Virus record (IMG/VR): IMGVR_UViG_2974603165_000001
Span: 2,589 to 66,588 of that record
Source of the DNA: a virus
Taxonomy: Duplodnaviria > Heunggongvirae > Uroviricota > Caudoviricetes
Length of the DNA stretch: 64,000 bases
Strand: one strand, 5' to 3'
The notes below the pieces were generated by a model. It saw nothing but the letters and a program-made list of their open reading frames with translations. It was not told the DNA's origin and ran no database searches. A program made the translations under genes and the position numbers. The stretch's first letter is position 1. Each line of letters starts with the position of its first letter. This document shows positions 40,304 to 48,335 of the stretch, piece by piece.

Positions 40304-40846
40304 TTACGGCGTTTTAGGCCATTCAGGGTCTTTTTGACTAATGTCAACCCGGTTAACAGTGATCATCAACTTTTCCAGATATTCCTTTTCCTGTCTCTCC
40401 TCTGGAGTCAAAGAACCATATTTCTCTGCGAGATTCAATGGCTCAAGGTGCTCCATCAGGGATCGGATAAGTTTTCTCTTCGTTTTGGTATTAGATTGTT
40501 TGACTTCCTCATCGCTAAGGACTAAACTCTCAAATTCAAAAGTGTTGATGTTAAAAATGTACTCGTTGTGAATACTGTAGGCTGTTTTTCCCTGCGGAAG
40601 TTTCTCAACAGGGATAACCACAACATCAAAAGAGCACTCTGGTGAGAAGGAGATCTCGGTTGCGTCCTCAGCCAGGCTGAGAATGCTACCCTCCTTACTC
40701 AGTAGCATCTTCACACCCTTCGGGAGTTCCTTTAGGATATCCGTCCAGAGGTTCCCCAACCCATCTTTGAATTGGGGGAATGCCAGTCTACTCTCACCCA
40801 TCTCCATAATCAGGTCATGGGAATAGTGAATGTCTTTGATTAACAA
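40304..40846 (-). CDS. tail fibre assembly chaperone
   Basis: C-terminal V..VDISQKDPEWPKTP; TTG start after GGAGG immediately following fibre stop. Confidence 0.7.
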   Translation of the reverse strand: MLIKDIHYSHDLIMEMGESRLAFPQFKDGLGNLWTDILKELPKGVKMLLSKEGSILSLAEDATEISFSPECSFDVVVIPVEKLPQGKTAYSIHNEYIFNINTFEFESLVLSDEEVKQSNTKTKRKLIRSLMEHLEPLNLAEKYGSLTPEERQEKEYLEKLMITVNRVDISQKDPEWPKTP

Positions 40847-40856
40847 GAAGCCTCCA

Positions 40857-41798
40857 TTATCTGGCGAGGGCAGTTGTGTAGGCAGCGGTCTGCCAGTTTC
40901 CATCAATGAGATACTGGAGAGGTCGGCTGTAGTAAGAACCATCATCCGCACCAAAGTCTCCACCGCCCGTAAGAACGTGTCCGTTTTCAAACTCAGCGGT
41001 CGGGCCACCTTGTCGTCTAAACACAGCCGCGCCGAAACGAATACCCATAATCCCTTGTGCTGGGAAGGTGATCGTGATGTTACCGTTCGCATCTGCGTTG
41101 TTGCCATTTACAGAACGGGCTACATGTTTCCCCGCTACAGTCGCACTGTTGTTGTTGACAACAAGGTTTGCAGTGGTTGTAGACCCTGCTACGGTTGCAT
41201 TACCTGTTGACTCAAGAGAGCCTCCACGCACAGTAGCTTGTGTCACAAGGGAACCGTTACCTGTGATAGTCAACCTTCCTGTCTCTGTCGTGCCATCAGC
41301 ATTTACGTTTCGGAAGACAAAGCCCCCGGCACCGCCGCCTTGGTTGTTGACAAAGAATGAAGCACCAGATCCGTTCGTTTCATTCCAACGAAGAATCAAC
41401 CCTTGTGTTGTCAGAGAGGTATTTGCTGATCCTGCGACCTTCAAACCACCAGACAGCGCACCACCCGTCAGTTGCAGGTAGCGGTCATCTGTCTCTGCTT
41501 TGGAGTAAACACCGAGGTTTTGGCGTGAAGCCGGAAGATCCATAAGATCAGACAGGCTTTGATTGCGTTGCAAGTACAGATTGCTCAGACCAGGTAGCTG
41601 TTCTTCCTGCATGTATTTCAGCCAAGAAGACAACATGAACCAGACGTAGTTCCATCCCTGTGCATCAGGTTTCTCGCCCATATCATAACCCTTATCCCAC
41701 AGGTCGCTGATCGGACGAATTTTATTTTTAGTCAAGGCATTAGGGAGGTCATAATCCTGTTCTGCCCACACTTCGATTTCGATATCCGGTTGTGCCAT
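40857..41798 (-). CDS. short tail fibre
   Basis: W.KGY..GEKP.AQ..N baseplate-anchor N-terminus; RSVNG..AD..GNI; RPLQYLIDGNW tip. Confidence 0.8.
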   Translation of the reverse strand: MAQPDIEIEVWAEQDYDLPNALTKNKIRPISDLWDKGYDMGEKPDAQGWNYVWFMLSSWLKYMQEEQLPGLSNLYLQRNQSLSDLMDLPASRQNLGVYSKAETDDRYLQLTGGALSGGLKVAGSANTSLTTQGLILRWNETNGSGASFFVNNQGGGAGGFVFRNVNADGTTETGRLTITGNGSLVTQATVRGGSLESTGNATVAGSTTTANLVVNNNSATVAGKHVARSVNGNNADANGNITITFPAQGIMGIRFGAAVFRRQGGPTAEFENGHVLTGGGDFGADDGSYYSRPLQYLIDGNWQTAAYTTALAR

Positions 41799-41808
41799 AA
41801 TGCCCTCG

Positions 41809-42162
41809 TTATACTGTTGTTAATACCGCGTCGCTGATGCTGATTACCGGAATTGGGCCTGCATCGGTTGTGTAGATCGTACACACCGCTCTGAGACGGG
41901 CGATTTTTGTGATGAGTTTTCGATATTTTGATGGGTTGGAGAGGTCGAGGAAGAACGTGATTGGAGGCGTTCCTTTCGGCTTTGTATACACATCAATAGG
42001 AATTTGTACCTGGACGGTACTGGCAGTCATGACGATTCGACCAGACTTTGCTACGTAATCGACTCCAGCTTTGGCTGTCCCATCCGTAGTCTTGTAATCC
42101 AGTGAACTCTCTTCTGCGAAGTTGTCCCTTGTGAGGGTAAAGATAGCTGTTACCGTAGCCAT
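41809..42162 (-). CDS. stand-alone Calx-beta domain protein
   Basis: DYKTTDGTAKAGVDY.AKSG, TFFLDLSNP; C-terminal ISISDAVLT strand. Confidence 0.75.
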   Translation of the reverse strand: MATVTAIFTLTRDNFAEESSLDYKTTDGTAKAGVDYVAKSGRIVMTASTVQVQIPIDVYTKPKGTPPITFFLDLSNPSKYRKLITKIARLRAVCTIYTTDAGPIPVISISDAVLTTV

Positions 42163-42203: not shown

Positions 42204-44624
42204 TTATAGCTCGTCGTTGAAGTAACGGTGGAGAGCAGCAAGGCTGATTGCAAACTCGGACTGCGCCCAGAAACGGTGGTATCTGAACACTGGCGGAGTC
42301 GTGCTCGCCCCTGTCGCATATGCTGCCACTTCTGCCCATTTCGGGTCGTTATGCAAGAAGGTACGAAGCTCATGGAACTTAACACCACTCTTGATCTGCT
42401 CACCGTTAGGCATTGTACCAGTGAAGATCTCTGGAACGTAAACCTCATCAAAGAGGCGTTTGTAGCCTGGCTGAGGAGAGTCAATCGCCAGACCAACGTC
42501 ATCCACGTACAGGTTCCACATACGATCCAGCAGTTCTTTAGCGAACAGCATAGCTGTTTCTGCTGTGTGGTTTGTGCTCTTGATCTTGCTGGTGTACTTG
42601 CCAAGATTCTTTTTCGCTTTCGCGTAAGTGATCAGTAAGTATGCCAGGGATGAAGCAACACCCAGGTCAGTTGCATACTCAACAATAGAGCAATGCAGGT
42701 TCGGGTTAGGAACCGTTGACGCGTTCCAGAAGGATGCTTGGTTACCTGTCCCGTCCCAGTTCAGAGATGGCAGATATTCGTACACACCTTCATGGTTAGG
42801 CGTTGTAGCCGTCTGACCAACAACCTGCGTTGGAGAAACCCAAGACAGTGTACCAGGAAGCTGGAATGAACCGTCTGAGGTCAACGTAGAGTTGTTCAGG
42901 AACCACACCACTAATGGGTCAAGGATGATCTCCAAGTTGGCTTTCAGCGTCACAGCCAGTGGAGTCGTCTTGTCCGAAACCTCAAGGAACAGATCCGCAG
43001 TACGGCCCTGACCCCAAGTCTGGAAACCAACCCAGTCGTTAGACGGTGGATCGTGCCAAACCGGTGCGTAGGTATAAACCATTCCGTAGAACTTGGCGTT
43101 CTGACGACCATCGGTAGGTGTCTCGTAACGTGCGTTCCAGGAGTTAGTCACACCACCCGCTAATGGGCCTTCTGGTGATTGTAGCCAACGAAGCATTTCC
43201 ATCTGACGGTAGACAGAGCCTAACCAAATGTCAGAAGCACTTGGAGAGAGTGAAGTGAATCCACCACCACCAGTAGCCATGAAGTAAGCTGAGTCAATCG
43301 CTTGGTAGCCTTGGTGACACTCGGAAGAACCGATGCGGTAAGACCAAGAACCTGTAGCACCGGAAGCCGGAATCTCACCGCCCCATGCTGCGTACCAGTT
43401 TACCAGATAATGGCAACTTTCGTAACCCTTTCCACCAACTTGATTGTCTCCAATCTTGCGGAAATACTTATCAAACAGGTTGTAACGCATGTAGTCGCCC
43501 ATTTTCTTCGCTTTCGTAGTTGAAGCGGAGATGGTGGTTGACGCGCCCTGTTCGGTTGCAAACTTCTGCGCCCAGAATGACCACTGGATCGCACGGCCTT
43601 CTGCATCGGGAGCGTTAGTGTATGACCACTTCTTGCCCCAGTCGTTAGCTGCCGCTGGATACCACTGTGTACCTTGGGTGAATAATGGGTCATATCCGTA
43701 GATTGAACCACCGTTCGCAAAGTCGTTCCACGCCGGGTGAGTTACCGTCTCGAAAGAAGATTCCTGCATACCGCGTTCGTAGGTGTTGATGAAGACGTTT
43801 TGCTTCGTACCATCGCCGTTACGGAAGTTATACAGACCTTCAACATCCAGAATCCAGTGCATCAGATACATACGCTTGTTTCCATAAGTGGACTCAAGCT
43901 CATCTGCCAATGGATCGGCACCTTTCGCTGCTGTTGGGTCACCAAGTGTTGGGTAAACGCTTGGGGTATCCCCTTCCGGTGTATAGTCCGCTGGTGAAGA
44001 CGGTGTATACACAGCGATAGGCTGGTTAGTCGGAGAAGGTACATAGAACTGATCGATACGGTTCCATGCGTTGTTGTAGCCTGTCCAGTCCGCTGTTCCT
44101 AACTGACCAGTGACATATCCGTTCCATGCTTCCAGACCAACCCAGAAAGAAGCGGTTTCTGATACGGTTTCACCACCGTGGTCAGGCGCTTCGTTAATGA
44201 TGATGCTGTCTACACCCGGAATGTGTCGTGGCAGTGTACGTGCGTTTGCACCTGTCTGCGGCCCGAAGTATTTGTTATCTACGTTGTGGACTTTATCATA
44301 GATCGTTTTGAAACGTTCCAGATAGTTGATCGCCACCGGGGTGTCTGAACCAGGGATGGTTGCAGTACCGGATGAAGTCCCTAAGACCCCGTTAACCGGG
44401 GACGAAAGGACAACGTAGAAGTTGGTCTCTGTTTCTGCCGGAGCATCATCGTTGACCAAGACAATAATGTCTTTGGAGGTCTCACCTACCGCAAACGTTA
44501 CTGTCCCCGATTTAGCTGTGTAGTTATCAGGTGCTACCGCAGATCCGTCTTGAGTAGCATAGTTAACCGTGACCAGCGAATCGCTGGCCTGGTTAAGGGT
44601 TGTCTTGAATGTAGCCTGTCTCAT
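42204..44624 (-). CDS. Calx-beta + glycoside hydrolase family 48 (processive exocellulase)
   Basis: EAPDHG.ETVSE, MHWILDV, INTYERG.QES..ETV.HP, YTNAPDAEGRAIQ, HYL..WY.AWGG, H.GYQ, GG.TNSW, YHRFWAQ. Confidence 0.93.
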   Translation of the reverse strand: MRQATFKTTLNQASDSLVTVNYATQDGSAVAPDNYTAKSGTVTFAVGETSKDIIVLVNDDAPAETETNFYVVLSSPVNGVLGTSSGTATIPGSDTPVAINYLERFKTIYDKVHNVDNKYFGPQTGANARTLPRHIPGVDSIIINEAPDHGGETVSETASFWVGLEAWNGYVTGQLGTADWTGYNNAWNRIDQFYVPSPTNQPIAVYTPSSPADYTPEGDTPSVYPTLGDPTAAKGADPLADELESTYGNKRMYLMHWILDVEGLYNFRNGDGTKQNVFINTYERGMQESSFETVTHPAWNDFANGGSIYGYDPLFTQGTQWYPAAANDWGKKWSYTNAPDAEGRAIQWSFWAQKFATEQGASTTISASTTKAKKMGDYMRYNLFDKYFRKIGDNQVGGKGYESCHYLVNWYAAWGGEIPASGATGSWSYRIGSSECHQGYQAIDSAYFMATGGGGFTSLSPSASDIWLGSVYRQMEMLRWLQSPEGPLAGGVTNSWNARYETPTDGRQNAKFYGMVYTYAPVWHDPPSNDWVGFQTWGQGRTADLFLEVSDKTTPLAVTLKANLEIILDPLVVWFLNNSTLTSDGSFQLPGTLSWVSPTQVVGQTATTPNHEGVYEYLPSLNWDGTGNQASFWNASTVPNPNLHCSIVEYATDLGVASSLAYLLITYAKAKKNLGKYTSKIKSTNHTAETAMLFAKELLDRMWNLYVDDVGLAIDSPQPGYKRLFDEVYVPEIFTGTMPNGEQIKSGVKFHELRTFLHNDPKWAEVAAYATGASTTPPVFRYHRFWAQSEFAISLAALHRYFNDEL

Positions 44625-44635
44625 TGTTACTCCTC

Positions 44636-46825
44636 TCAGTCGGACAATGCCGGGGCGAGTAGATTCAGCTTAACAGTTTGAGGGGTTGTCCAGTTATCCT
44701 GAACCAGACCGCCTGTGTCTCCACTGTTAGGGTTGTAACACCAGTAGCTGTAAGAAATTCCTTTCTTCCCTGCTGCCAGGTCACGAACACCGTCGCCGTT
44801 AAAGTCGCCGTTCCAATAAGTGATCAGATTACTGAGCCATTGCTTCTCGTAAGTCGCATGAGGTTTGGTCAGGTTTCCAGATCCGTCAACACCGAAGTGT
44901 CCACCGAACTCTCCTACCCAAACTGGCGCAATATTCTGTGTGAAGATGTAGCCCCACATTGGTTCCCAAACACCGTACAGGTTAGAAGGCCAGTTCGCCG
45001 GAGGGGTCTGGTTATCATAAGCCAGCCAAGACTGACTTCCAACGCTTTGTCCATATTCGTGAGGGCTGTAAGCCACACGGTTAGGCTGCGTCAGAGTAAC
45101 CGGACGTGATGCAACACCTTGAAGTTGACCGCCCCACCAGTAGCTGACGTTGTTGTACTGACCGACACCTTCAACGAAGATGATCCAATCGGTAGTCACT
45201 GCGTGGATTGCGTTACCTGCTTGTTCAGCATAGCTCGCCCACGTTGACCAATCCAGATCGTGCGGTTCGTTATGAACGTCTGCCCCGATAACGTTGATTG
45301 CTGACTTGTAGCGTGTCGCAAGTTTCGTCCAAGAGGAAATCCACTGACTCAATGTGTAGCTTCCGTCAACCGGAGAGCCATCTGCCCCATCTCCCGCTGT
45401 ACGACGGTGGTGATCAAGGATAACATAAATCTCTTTCGTGTTGCAATAGTCGATGATGAGATCCAAGATCTCCAACGCCGTCTTGCCTACAAACTCAGAG
45501 TTTACTTCCCAATCGACTGCCGCTGTTGGTGGGTAAGGGTTGTTCTGCACCACCTCACCAGATAATGGGATACGGATCGTGTTGAATCCGAATGTCTTAA
45601 TCTGATCGATGATGTCTTTCCAGTAACGAGCACCGAGCCATGTTCCGTGAGGAGTATAGTTCGTACCTTCCATACCAAACCAGTTTACAGATTTGATGCG
45701 GAAATTCTCAGAAGTCTGGGTTGTTACAAACTGGTTTCCAGATGTCACCAGGCGCTGTAGTCCAACAACTGGGGCTGCTTCACCTACACCAGAAAGCGCA
45801 ACAGTCAATGAAGCTGCATGTCCGATTGTAGTGATCGCCAGGTTGCCAGAGACAATACCTACCGATTGTGGATTGAACACGATTGCCACGTCCGCAGTTT
45901 TGCGTGGGGCGATCACTGTTCCCGTTTGAGCGCTTCCAGAGGCAAGACTGTAGCCTGTAGGCAGCGTCAGTGTACCAATGGTCACATTCACATCTGTGTC
46001 GTTACTGATGGTCACAAGTTTACTCGCTGTTGGTGTTCCAACAATCGAAGAACCAAATGCCATAGTTAACGGAGAGATTGTTACACTATCAGCGGATTCT
46101 GTCAATACAGCATCAGAGATAGAGATGATAATGCCAACCGGAGGAATTTCAGAAGCATCGACGGTGATATCCTCGACAGAGACAGTCATGATGTAGCCTG
46201 TGTTCTCTTCATCGGAGGTGTAAACCAGTCGGGAGATCCCGCCTTGAGTGGTCTTTGTTTTATCAGCATTAACAGAGGAGAACCCAAAGGTGTCATCGTC
46301 TCCATTAAAACCGAATGCCCTTCCGTATGACTCAATCAAACGTAAGTGCGTTGGAAGAGGAAGCATGTCCTTGATTTCTTCAAGCAGGTCTTCCAGCTTG
46401 AAACAGGTTGACATTACATGGATGTCAACACGGTAATTCTCACCCTTCCAGGTGGTAAAGTTTTGGTCACCAAAGAGTTGACGGAGAGTCTGGATCACTT
46501 CCGGGCGTGTACCGTGCTTTGATGCACTCGCCAAAAGGATAGTGATCTGAGCACGATAGCTGTCATCGCCCATTCCGTTTCTGTCAACACCAAGTTGTCT
46601 ACCGATCTCATCCAGGTTCATGTACGTGGCGTTTGCCAGTAAACGACCCTCAGACAGCTTGACTAACATCTCATCAATCGCTTTAAGGCGATTCAGATAC
46701 ACACTTAGAAAAGTGGTGAGATTTTCCTTATCACGAAGGAAATCTCCAGGTAGGTAGTCAAGACCGTCTTGGACAAAATCTGGCAGCACATGAATGTGGT
46801 TGACATCCTGTAATGTATCTGCCAT
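44636..46825 (-). CDS. baseplate wedge-type subunit fused to Ig-like domain and GH5 endoglucanase
   Basis: N-term LD.IG..LG..R....D..YR..I (DUF2612-like); C-term VNWFGME..PHG, GFNTIRIP, LDHH, NEPH, YSPHEYG, GEFGG, YWCYNPNSGDTGG. Confidence 0.93.
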   Translation of the reverse strand: MADTLQDVNHIHVLPDFVQDGLDYLPGDFLRDKENLTTFLSVYLNRLKAIDEMLVKLSEGRLLANATYMNLDEIGRQLGVDRNGMGDDSYRAQITILLASASKHGTRPEVIQTLRQLFGDQNFTTWKGENYRVDIHVMSTCFKLEDLLEEIKDMLPLPTHLRLIESYGRAFGFNGDDDTFGFSSVNADKTKTTQGGISRLVYTSDEENTGYIMTVSVEDITVDASEIPPVGIIISISDAVLTESADSVTISPLTMAFGSSIVGTPTASKLVTISNDTDVNVTIGTLTLPTGYSLASGSAQTGTVIAPRKTADVAIVFNPQSVGIVSGNLAITTIGHAASLTVALSGVGEAAPVVGLQRLVTSGNQFVTTQTSENFRIKSVNWFGMEGTNYTPHGTWLGARYWKDIIDQIKTFGFNTIRIPLSGEVVQNNPYPPTAAVDWEVNSEFVGKTALEILDLIIDYCNTKEIYVILDHHRRTAGDGADGSPVDGSYTLSQWISSWTKLATRYKSAINVIGADVHNEPHDLDWSTWASYAEQAGNAIHAVTTDWIIFVEGVGQYNNVSYWWGGQLQGVASRPVTLTQPNRVAYSPHEYGQSVGSQSWLAYDNQTPPANWPSNLYGVWEPMWGYIFTQNIAPVWVGEFGGHFGVDGSGNLTKPHATYEKQWLSNLITYWNGDFNGDGVRDLAAGKKGISYSYWCYNPNSGDTGGLVQDNWTTPQTVKLNLLAPALSD

Positions 46826-46835
46826 GCTATCCCCA

Positions 46836-48335
46836 TTAAGTAATCTGTTGGAACAGGATGTTTGTCGTGTCGAGAGCAAACACTTCACGCATTCCCAATG
46901 TAACGTCCGCAGTGGTGTACGCAGTCGTTGGTTCAGAAGCCTTCTTCACTTGAGCCACAAGCTGTGTGAAGCGCCCTGCTGCCAACGATCCGGCTACAGC
47001 AGCGATCAACTGGATGTTGTACAGAGTATCAGCAATGCTGAGTCCGTCTGTCATCGTCTTAATCGCTGAACGAATTGAATCCTGTTCGGTGGATGAAAGC
47101 GTCTTACCCTGGTATTTGATCAGGATGTTGTAGTTAGTCGCTGCCGCTTTACTGTGGTAAATACGCTCAACACCATCATCTTCTGTGGTGATATCATAGA
47201 ACGTGTTTCCGTAAGTGGCGTTTGACAACGCAATCGTGTTGTAAAGTGCTTTGCTGATCTCCTCGGTCACACCGCCGTAAACAACTGTCTCGAACTTGTA
47301 TTTCGGGACGCCGTATTGGTCACGTTGGTCGGTGTTGTTCGCGAAAATCTTAACCTTCTGGACACCATCCACATTCAGCAGTGCCGAGATAACCGCAGGT
47401 CTTGTGGCTTTGGATGCCTCTGAGGTGATGGAGGATGCACGAAGTTTGTATTCGTTATCCGTCTCAACATCTGTACCAGATGCAAAGGACTCTGAGTTGT
47501 TCAGAGACAGGAAGCCGCTTGGTGTAGGGGAGATCTGTGTAACTGTGTTCTCTTCACGAGACAGTACGCCAGCCTCTACCGCAACAACCTCAAAGGATAA
47601 CGTCCTTGTTCCCACAATAGGTGAGGATCGGAAGTCGATACGACTGTTCAGACCAACAAACTCCTTAGCGGAGTTGTAACCAATGTACAGTGCTCCAGCG
47701 GCGGAGTCAATGTAAATCAGGTCAGAGTTTAAGTCTGTTGTGTTCGTAACGATAAAGTCTTTGATTGAGGACAGGAACGTGTTAAGTTCTGCTGAACCGG
47801 GTGTTTTGTTACGCAGTGTCAGAGACAAGCTCTTCATTGCATTGTCTGCTGAACTCAGGATCTGGAAGGTGTATTTACCCAGAACCAAATCGGAGTTGAG
47901 GATCTGCTGTGCAACAACGGAGCCTGCTACGGTTGCGTTACCAGTCAGTACGAATGTTCCGTTGTCAACGGTGAAGGAATCTGGTGTGTAGATAAGGTTG
48001 TATGGAACAGTGGTGTTCACTGTCATCTCAATCGTACCTGTGCTCTTGGTCTTACCGCGACGATAAATACCACGACGGCCCAGAAGCTCGTCAAGGTAGA
48101 TACCTTCGGCACCCGCCAGAGTCCCAGAGGTGAAGATCGCTGCTCCAAGCAGGATCAGTTGATATTCACGTTCATTCAGGATCGTTGTCAGCTTGTCGAT
48201 CACAGAGTTTGACTGGGTGTTGAAGGTTTCCCCGAAAGCGGCGATCAACATTGTCTTCGTGTCGGAGATCAGTGTATCAAGTGCGGGAACCTTGAAGCCG
48301 TAGTCGTTCAAACCATAGGTGTTTTGATCGGCCAC
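46836..48335 (-). CDS. baseplate J-like wedge protein
   Basis: G..LD....GI.R, G.DVETD.EY..R, AL..VDGV..V..F.N motifs. Confidence 0.9.
   Translation of the reverse strand: MADQNTYGLNDYGFKVPALDTLISDTKTMLIAAFGETFNTQSNSVIDKLTTILNEREYQLILLGAAIFTSGTLAGAEGIYLDELLGRRGIYRRGKTKSTGTIEMTVNTTVPYNLIYTPDSFTVDNGTFVLTGNATVAGSVVAQQILNSDLVLGKYTFQILSSADNAMKSLSLTLRNKTPGSAELNTFLSSIKDFIVTNTTDLNSDLIYIDSAAGALYIGYNSAKEFVGLNSRIDFRSSPIVGTRTLSFEVVAVEAGVLSREENTVTQISPTPSGFLSLNNSESFASGTDVETDNEYKLRASSITSEASKATRPAVISALLNVDGVQKVKIFANNTDQRDQYGVPKYKFETVVYGGVTEEISKALYNTIALSNATYGNTFYDITTEDDGVERIYHSKAAATNYNILIKYQGKTLSSTEQDSIRSAIKTMTDGLSIADTLYNIQLIAAVAGSLAAGRFTQLVAQVKKASEPTTAYTTADVTLGMREVFALDTTNILFQQIT

Follow-up and report, generated by a model that had tools for sequence, protein, structure and literature searches.

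Why would a tailed phage carry the gene for a complete cellulase of glycoside hydrolase family 48 (GH48), where did this gene come from, and how might its product be used? These questions are raised by a DNA stretch of 64,000 nucleotides (nt) (hereafter the window; positions 2,589 to 66,588 of the IMG/VR virus record IMGVR_UViG_2974603165_000001, Caudoviricetes), in which an open reading frame (ORF) at 42204-44624 on the minus strand stays open for 806 codons. Its product, P0001, consists of a Calx-beta domain followed by a GH48 domain. We consider it probable that P0001 is a catalytically competent, processive, cellobiose-releasing beta-1,4-glucanase within the tail/baseplate, which is paired with a GH5 enzyme and acts on the cellulose of the host.

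Integrity of the GH48 Enzyme

The Pfam profile Glyco_hydro_48 (PF02011) matched P0001 with an E-value of 7e-195 (649.6 bits at a cut-off of 25), the match spanning profile positions 1-619 in two stretches, and the Calx-beta profile (PF03160) matched residues 14-79 (E 9e-15). The motifs ETVSE (residues 152-156), YTNAPDAEGRAIQ (335-347) and YHRFWAQ (782-788), quoted as GH48 signatures in an earlier reading of the DNA made from its letters alone (the sequence-only reading), were found exactly where that reading had placed them, as was the codon of the catalytic Glu at 44157-44159 (E156, the final residue of ETVSE). P0001 was similar to all solved GH48 proteins among the PDB sequences (phmmer, E from 1e-147 to 1e-100), and in a residue-level alignment with PDB entry 1F9O its E145, E156 and D340 corresponded to E44, E55 and D230 of Cel48F. 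Neither a carbohydrate-binding module (CBM) nor a dockerin or signal peptide was detected in the P0001 translation or by Pfam.

To describe conservation, one alignment was made of 62 GH48 domains from cellular enzymes and 94 of the phage type, nearly all of the latter coming from proteins with the architecture found in P0001, an N-terminal Calx-beta directly followed by GH48, about 800 amino acids (aa) long and without CBM. In the cellular set 146 columns showed a conservation of at least 95%; P0001 kept 121 of them, and its departures are mostly clade-wide. Among the invariant Trp, Tyr and Phe columns 29 of 31 were identical in P0001, a count taken over all such columns, whether or not they line the tunnel; the exceptions were one Tyr replaced by Phe and one Trp replaced by Leu at residue 571. 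E145, E156 and D340 were invariant in all 58 aligned members of the phage-type clade, which indicates purifying selection on catalysis. That the GH48 domain is instead a catalytically dead, lectin-like module for receptor binding is hardly credible given this invariance; the only point in its favor is the replacement of an otherwise invariant His by Gly at residue 151 of P0001.

The AlphaFold2 model of P0001, built on the 58 clade members, had a mean predicted local distance difference test score (pLDDT) of 94.4. Whole-chain comparison with Foldseek superposed it on the GH48 structures 4L0G, 1F9D and 1L1Y with target-normalized template modeling (TM) scores of 0.93-0.96 and a root-mean-square deviation (rmsd) of 2.0-2.5 Å; for the GH48 domain of C. 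bescii CelA (4L0G) the values were TM 0.95, rmsd 2.0 Å and 41% identity. In comparison with solved GH48s P0001 carries about 75 extra residues as insertions, the largest of which (residues 597-628, about 32 aa) is conserved inside the phage-type clade.

Thus the profile match, the (alpha/alpha)6 fold, the catalytic acids and the conserved aromatic residues all place P0001 in the GH48 family. As judged from the alignments and the superposition of the modeled chain, no catalytic residue or fold element of GH48 has been lost, and P0001 is apparently a full-length, active GH48. The claim of the sequence-only reading that a phage genome encodes a full-length enzyme of this family is borne out by the Pfam score, the catalytic residues and the fold. 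It should be mentioned that P0001 may work like a tailspike depolymerase, yet it stands outside that structural class, having an (alpha/alpha)6 barrel and not a trimeric beta-helix.

The Phage and Its Tail Gene Cluster

The source genome, whose virus record is rated as 100% complete, has a length of 147,321 bp. Over 10 kb around the GH48 gene it showed about 79% nucleotide identity to Erwinia phage Hena1 (Henunavirus, Vequintavirinae), and the source phage is therefore separate from Hena1; to judge from its genes, it is a Hena1-like Erwinia-type myophage of the Vequintavirinae. Hena1, whose host is E. amylovora, shows the same gene order, namely baseplate hub, spike and wedge, the "baseplate protein" gp204, gp203, a 117-aa protein, tail fiber and fiber-assembly protein. 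Its gp203 (YP_009854372.1, annotated as "glycoside hydrolase") is 90% identical to P0001 at the amino acid level across all 806 residues.

In the source phage the GH48 gene is flanked by genes for a baseplate wedge subunit, a baseplate-GH5 fusion protein (P0002), a tail fiber and a fiber-assembly protein, all on one strand. P0002 combines a baseplate domain (phrog_4056 baseplate protein, residues 22-238) with an immunoglobulin-like (Ig-like) domain and a GH5 domain (Pfam Cellulase, E 2e-45 at residues 399-722), and only 11 nt separate its stop codon from the ATG of the GH48 gene. In the related Seunavirus phages GAP31 and 4MG the baseplate protein has only 210 aa and its gene is directly followed by the fiber gene. 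Hence the cassette of about 4.4 kb, made up of the Ig-GH5 extension, the gene for Calx-GH48 and that of the 117-aa Calx-beta protein, is an insertion into a conserved structural module.

Relatives in Described Phages and Cellular GH48 Enzymes

Full-length homologues of P0001 were found by tblastn in 13 of 50,697 phage records. Two of them were Hena1 records and the remaining 11 belonged to N4-like Erwinia phages, with 55-64% identity to P0001; they represent nine different phages (S6, Pastis, Kuerle, phiEaP8 and five Fifi phages), S6 and phiEaP8 being recorded twice each. Three Erwinia phages that a review places in the Vequintavirinae, pEa_SNUABM_55, pEa_SNUABM_56 and pEp_SNUABM_01, were absent from the GH48 matches among these records, and within this subfamily the cellulase cassette seems limited to the Hena1 lineage.

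Among these phages, S6 (vB_EamP-S6; Schitoviridae, N4-like) has been described in the literature. Its gp094, the type member of the phage-type clade, is 63.5% identical to P0001 over the full length (67% in the GH48 domain and 43% in the Calx-beta domain), and the GH5 domains of the two phages are 62% identical. S6 shares with the source phage the Calx-beta + GH48 architecture, the order GH5 then GH48 and the predicted catalytic Glu and Asp. It differs in being a podovirus, whose GH5 protein has Ig-like "choice-of-anchor D" domains in place of the myovirus baseplate domain, and in having no small Calx-beta protein, its gp093 being unrelated to the 117-aa protein. In a 2022 commentary on S6, gp094 is presented as Calx-beta + GH48 with predicted Glu155 and Asp331, and carboxymethyl-cellulose is said to be broken down by the GH5 enzyme gp095 (PMC9544554). 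The same commentary states that cellulose is degraded by S6 virions, and that S6 fails to infect mutants in cellulose synthesis (bcs), host cellulose being its first receptor (PMC9544554, citing Knecht et al. 2022). In addition, viruses and a CalX-like architecture already appear under GH48 in a survey of CAZy domain architectures (PMC11238990).

The cellular enzymes Cel48F (C. cellulolyticum), CelS (C. thermocellum), CelA GH48 (C. bescii) and Cel48A (T. fusca) have the same fold and catalytic residues as P0001, at 37-41% identity. Unlike them, P0001 has a Calx-beta N-terminus in place of a signal peptide, CBM or dockerin, as well as the insertions noted above and several substitutions near the active site.

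Thus proteins of the P0001 kind and the GH5/GH48 pair were largely known already, the nearest described proteins being Hena1 gp203 and S6 gp094. The novelty ascribed to the gene in the sequence-only reading was overstated. This reading had itself named frequent occurrence of GH48 in related phages, with prior characterization, as an argument against it, and the argument largely applies: GH48 occurs in Hena1, in nine N4-like phages and in about 90 metagenomic clusters; its characterization has gone less far, the assay reported in the literature concerning GH5 only.

Constant Association with GH5

We analyzed eight loci, namely the window, Hena1, S6, a Novosphingobium prophage and four further loci designated L008-L011. 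Each of the eight has a GH5 or GH5-like gene on the upstream side of GH48, at a distance of zero to two genes; the one in L011 codes for a protein of 715 aa that is only distantly related to GH5 (29% identity, E 5e-36). Moreover, two natural fusions with opposite domain order were revealed, P0057 (GH5-GH48-Ig) and P0143 (GH48-GH5-Calx). Endo/exo synergy of cellulases is well known. Together with it, these "Rosetta-stone" fusions support joint action of GH5 and GH48 on one substrate.

Some fusions have features of their own. P0057 (1,326 aa; L005:6853-10833) has no Calx-beta domain and is encoded between lysozyme/Rz-like genes and a small terminase gene, on a contig of 13.5 kb that also carries HTH and RusA genes; it may be a soluble, lysis-time version of the enzyme pair. 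GDSL/SGNH esterase domains are fused to the relatives P0139, P0303 and P0314 (arranged as Calx-GH48-GDSL or GH5-GDSL). The cellulose of some hosts might accordingly bear ester (acetyl) groups that have to be taken off first.

Origin and Age of the Phage-Type GH48

A search of 5.8 billion proteins returned about 90 clusters with 39-82% identity to P0001, nearly all of them with the Calx-beta + GH48 architecture and many located on contigs of 60-77 kb or 112-148 kb. The next-closest group consisted of actinobacterial CBM2-GH48 enzymes (36-42% identity to P0001). In a FastTree phylogeny of 156 GH48 domains the 94 phage-type sequences were set apart from the others by a branch whose support was 100 and whose combined length was about 0.6, and the same split between phage-type and cellular sequences was obtained with IQ-TREE for 60 sequences (Shimodaira-Hasegawa-like approximate likelihood ratio test, SH-aLRT, 100). 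On the opposite side were GH48s of Actinomycetota, Bacillota, Bacteroidota and Chloroflexota. The trees are unrooted and therefore name no donor. Since identity within the phage-type clade goes down to 39%, the clade is old.

Prophages account for the GH48 hits in "bacterial" records. In that of Novosphingobium sp. PhB55 the GH48 gene lies among genes for a phage capsid, an SU10 adaptor, a Gp77-Ig-GH5 protein and a giant protein of 5,559 aa. A gene with the exact sequence of a Rhodoblastus acidophilus protein was found on a 71-kb metagenomic contig together with similar phage genes. The GH48 domain of P0001 is 68% identical to the alphaproteobacterial prophage copy and 67% identical to the S6 copy, and this equal closeness supports exchange of GH48 between phages. 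It should be mentioned that in the Novosphingobium locus (L004, contig positions 64338-86758) the giant protein contains SLT, helicase and LPD domains.

The sequence-only reading had assumed horizontal capture from an environmental cellulolytic bacterium, and had proposed phylogeny and codon usage as checks. A recent capture of this kind by the source phage, from a Firmicute or Actinobacterium and aimed at crystalline (plant) cellulose, now appears very improbable, even though the nearest cellular GH48s are the actinobacterial enzymes mentioned above. It is contradicted by the position of P0001 inside a deep and old phage-type clade of about 94 clusters, split by a long branch with support 100 from the enzymes of four bacterial phyla. 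It is equally contradicted by synonymous codon usage, which is ordinary for this genome (z = 0.07, rank 23 of 49 among phage genes of at least 250 aa), as is the GC content at third codon positions (GC3; z = -0.6). The missing CBM, dockerin and signal peptide also speak against it, and on the trees and the codon usage we rejected it. The clade split and the phage-typical codon usage argue that any capture of a bacterial GH48 was old and was not made by the source phage. From these comparisons the cassette appears as an old phage-borne module, which has moved between unrelated phage types.

The N-Terminal Calx-Beta Domain

We constructed a hidden Markov model (HMM) of the Calx-beta domain with 131 positions from 350 canonical tandem repeats (consensus ...DDD-AAPTLSIADATVTEG-DSGTTTATFTVTLS...). 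All 13 N-terminal Calx-beta domains in the loci under study started at HMM position 28-33, at protein residue 3-7; the alignment of P0001 began at HMM position 32 and residue 3, and that of the 117-aa protein at position 30. Because the protein start falls after the strand-A position, the N-terminal domains examined lack strand A (PTLSIADATVTEG). Canonical repeats carry P-x-L-S-I-x-D-x-x-V-x-E-G just ahead of that start point. In the AlphaFold model the Calx-beta domain of P0001 has six strands (residues 2-9, 18-26, 39-44, 50-57, 67-77 and 85-90), and it matches the Calx-beta domains of integrin beta4 and NCX1 in Foldseek.

The same strand-A-less start was found in the retrieved loci in proteins of 653, 716, 615 and 1034 aa and in small proteins of 112-117 aa. 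In podophages of Klebsiella, Serratia and Erwinia, "tail proteins" with other C-terminal parts have N-termini that match residues 2-125 of P0001. Sharing of an N-terminal domain by proteins with differing C-terminal parts is a usual mark of an anchor, and a role of Calx-beta as the virion anchor of P0001, as put forward in the sequence-only reading, is plausible. In the Novosphingobium prophage three consecutive proteins begin with the strand-A-less domain (716 aa, the GH48 protein and 1,034 aa).

Peptides resembling the missing strand were revealed in neighboring proteins. In the source phage the candidate donors are ISISDAVLTE in P0002 (residues 255-264), between its baseplate and Ig-like domains, and ISISDAVLT at the extreme C-terminus of the 117-aa protein. 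When scored with a strand-A position matrix derived from 1,688 canonical repeats and blurred by register shifts, the peptide of the 117-aa protein ranked first and that of P0002 third among the 79,110 14-mers from all six-frame ORFs of the source genome. These repeats came from a whole-protein search of representatives, which was dominated by giant proteins built of Calx-beta repeats and also gave the fused forms P0139, P0140 and P0143. A loose regular expression for strand A gave seven matches in the genome, and the canonical-repeat HMM gave no significant score to the 10-residue donor peptides (hmmsearch); the matrix ranks are the better statistic.

Similar peptides are present in the GH5 partners of other loci (LSVSDGVI in S6 gp095, INVSDAVIV in L008) and at the C-termini of small neighbor proteins of L008, L009 and L010 (VISVSNAVIVEA, VVSISNGVV and VVSINNVSV, respectively). 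The motif could be aligned in 15 of 16 GH5 partner proteins. Besides those of the window, S6 and L008, the GH5 proteins of 13 further relatives have matching peptides. The numbers of donor peptides and acceptor domains are two and two in the window and in L008, and one and one in S6 and L009, which fits docking by strand complementation. The 117-aa protein itself was found only in Hena1-like phages (three clusters). L010 encodes an analogous protein of 112 aa immediately ahead of GH48. For the 117-aa protein (P0122), AlphaFold modeling from three sequences gave a pLDDT of 56, too poor to judge a folding back of the C-terminal strand in cis.

It can be tentatively proposed that the Calx-beta domains of the cassette are split domains, complemented in trans by a strand P-x-[ILV]-S-[IV]-S-[DN]-[AG]-V-[ILV] that is encoded on other virion proteins, and that they form a portable plug-and-socket for interchangeable enzymes on unrelated tails; we regard this as a serious possibility that falls somewhat short of being probable. 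It would span Vequintavirinae, N4-like and GP4/SU10-like phages, and in the source phage a chain from P0002 through P0122 to GH48 could form. In GP4-, VP1- and A1002-like podophages an augmented beta-sheet joins the fiber subunits to a "rope" or adaptor protein (PMC13730344). The GH5 partners of podophage relatives resemble this system in that they begin with the fiber-tail adaptor domain of GP4 gp77. Unlike GP4-type docking, the docking proposed here would complete a Calx-beta sandwich that has no strand A.

Proposed Mode of Action and Its Alternatives

Together these data suggest the following scheme. The GH5 endoglucanase of P0002, fused in frame to a baseplate protein, would nick the bacterial cellulose secreted by the host (bcs operon), and P0001 would strip chains processively from the new ends by endo/exo synergy. 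Six baseplate-fused GH5 endoglucanases would work with P0001, and the baseplate would bind to the cellulose matrix and then tunnel through it to the outer membrane. The N-terminal Calx-beta domain probably fixes P0001 to the virion, and the strand A that this domain lacks may be supplied in trans by the P0002 peptide and/or the C-terminus of the 117-aa protein. In S6 the passage through cellulose to the cell surface was shown genetically, according to the commentary (PMC9544554).

A number of observations weigh against this scheme. In the commentary gp095 (GH5) is the sole S6 enzyme verified by assay (PMC9544554); we found in the literature no assay of any phage GH48 and no experimental study of the proteins of the source phage or of Hena1. 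Cellulose as the substrate of the source phage and strand complementation are both deduced from sequence data, and we infer the presence of P0001 in the virion from the position of its gene. Furthermore, bacterial GH5 relatives also carry Calx-beta, together with CBM2, so that Calx-beta could be a spacer or sugar-binding module and not an anchor.

The location of the enzyme is the first point on which another explanation has to be weighed. A terminator-like hairpin closes the GH48 gene of the source phage (seven pairs, six of them G-C, followed by a T-run), and in S6 and L011 the gene borders lysis genes, being followed there by holin and endolysin genes. Along with the fusion P0057, which has no Calx-beta domain and sits between lysozyme/Rz-like genes and terminase, these data could mean that GH48 is not part of the virion but a soluble enzyme, made late and freed at lysis, which dissolves the cellulose biofilm matrix for the escape and spread of progeny. 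We consider this unlikely, since the gene is situated inside the baseplate/fiber module right behind the baseplate fusion gene, its N-terminal domain is common to neighbor-encoded proteins with different C-terminal parts, and S6 virions themselves, as reported, degrade cellulose (PMC9544554).

The second point is the substrate. Beside the catalytic residues of P0001, TTSE is changed to TVSE (T154V) and APDAD to APDAE (D342E), each in 96% of the clade, and the otherwise invariant His of APDxGH is Gly151 (H151G), a change particular to P0001. Owing to these substitutions, which flank the catalytic acid and base, substrate specificity could be unlike that of the classical cellobiohydrolases. Chitinases are known among the GH48s of insects. 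Characterized GH48 proteins are marked with the chitinase number EC 3.2.1.14 in the CAZy survey (PMC11238990). One may suppose, therefore, that the specificity of the clade has shifted to another beta-1,4-glycan, such as a cellulose substituted with acetyl or phosphoethanolamine groups, a material resembling chitin or some other exopolysaccharide, and the esterase fusions P0139, P0303 and P0314 would agree with this. However, P0001 retains the three acidic residues together with 29 of the 31 invariant aromatic ones, its constant partner is a GH5 cellulase that in the S6 version acts on carboxymethyl-cellulose, and the bcs operon is reported to be needed for S6 infection (PMC9544554). A shifted substrate is thus quite improbable in our estimation, and a virion-borne enzyme pair acting on host cellulose remains the reading that we prefer.

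Features of the Locus

The coordinates of the features are collected in Table 1. The starts of two ORFs deserve comment. The ORF of P0002 extends to a GTG at 46888, and the recorded protein (MADTLQDV...) starts with the ATG at 46825; translation probably leaves out the 21 codons ahead of it. The fiber-assembly ORF overlaps the tail-fiber ORF by 250 nt, and its true start is probably internal to the listed ORF, because the Hena1 homologue has only 166 aa. The small Calx-beta gene (ATG at 42162, with a GGAG of its own) sits behind the hairpin, and owing to the hairpin between it and the GH48 gene it may have an expression level unlike that of both cellulases.

TABLE 1. Features of the GH48 locus (positions in the window).
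Feature	Position	Strand	Basis
Baseplate wedge subunit gene	46836-48335	-	PHROGs/Pfam
GH5 partner P0002: baseplate domain + Ig-like domain + GH5 cellulase, 729 aa from ATG	44636..46825	-	Pfam, PHROGs
ISISDAVLTE, strand-A-like candidate donor peptide in P0002 (residues 255-264)	46097..46126	-	Position-matrix rank 3
GAGGAG ribosome-binding site, 5 nt before the GH48 ATG	44630..44635	-	Sequence read directly
P0001 gene (Calx-beta + GH48, 806 aa)	42204..44624	-	ORF/translation, Pfam PF02011 + PF03160, Hena1 gp203 identity
N-terminal Calx-beta domain of P0001, residues 1-98, six strands, without canonical strand A	44331..44624	-	HMM alignment, AlphaFold, Foldseek
GH48 catalytic domain, residues 99-806, (alpha/alpha)6 barrel	42207..44330	-	phmmer, Foldseek, column conservation
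E145 codon, counterpart of Cel48F E44	44190..44192	-	Alignment to 1F9O
E156 codon, counterpart of catalytic acid Cel48F E55	44157..44159	-	Alignment to 1F9O
D340 codon, counterpart of proposed catalytic base Cel48F D230	43605..43607	-	Alignment to 1F9O
Terminator-like GC-rich hairpin + T-run, directly after the GH48 stop codon	42172..42197	-	Sequence
117-aa Calx-beta protein (P0122/P0392), without strand A, C-terminal ISISDAVLT	41809..42162	-	Pfam Calx-beta E 9e-9
ISISDAVLT, strand-A-like peptide at the extreme C-terminus of the 117-aa protein	41818-41844	-	Position-matrix rank 1
Tail fiber gene	40857-41798	-	PHROGs/Pfam
Fiber-assembly protein ORF	40304-41107	-	PHROGs/Pfam

Significance

What is new in this work is the breadth, age and monophyly of the phage-type GH48 clade, its constant partnership with GH5, fusions included, and the sequence evidence that suggests split Calx-beta docking. 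The contractile-tailed phage of the Vequintavirinae is the second phage morphotype with the S6-type pair of GH5 and GH48. This pair is a widespread, old and mobile phage module; its clusters, about 90 in number, come from Gammaproteobacteria and Alphaproteobacteria, where phages and prophages carry them. If docking by strand complementation is true, it would be a compact device of natural origin by which cargo enzymes are mounted on phage tails. Phages of this kind offer GH48 enzymes that are probably adapted to the cellulose of bacteria and not to that of plants, and they could help against cellulose-containing biofilms of plant-associated bacteria.

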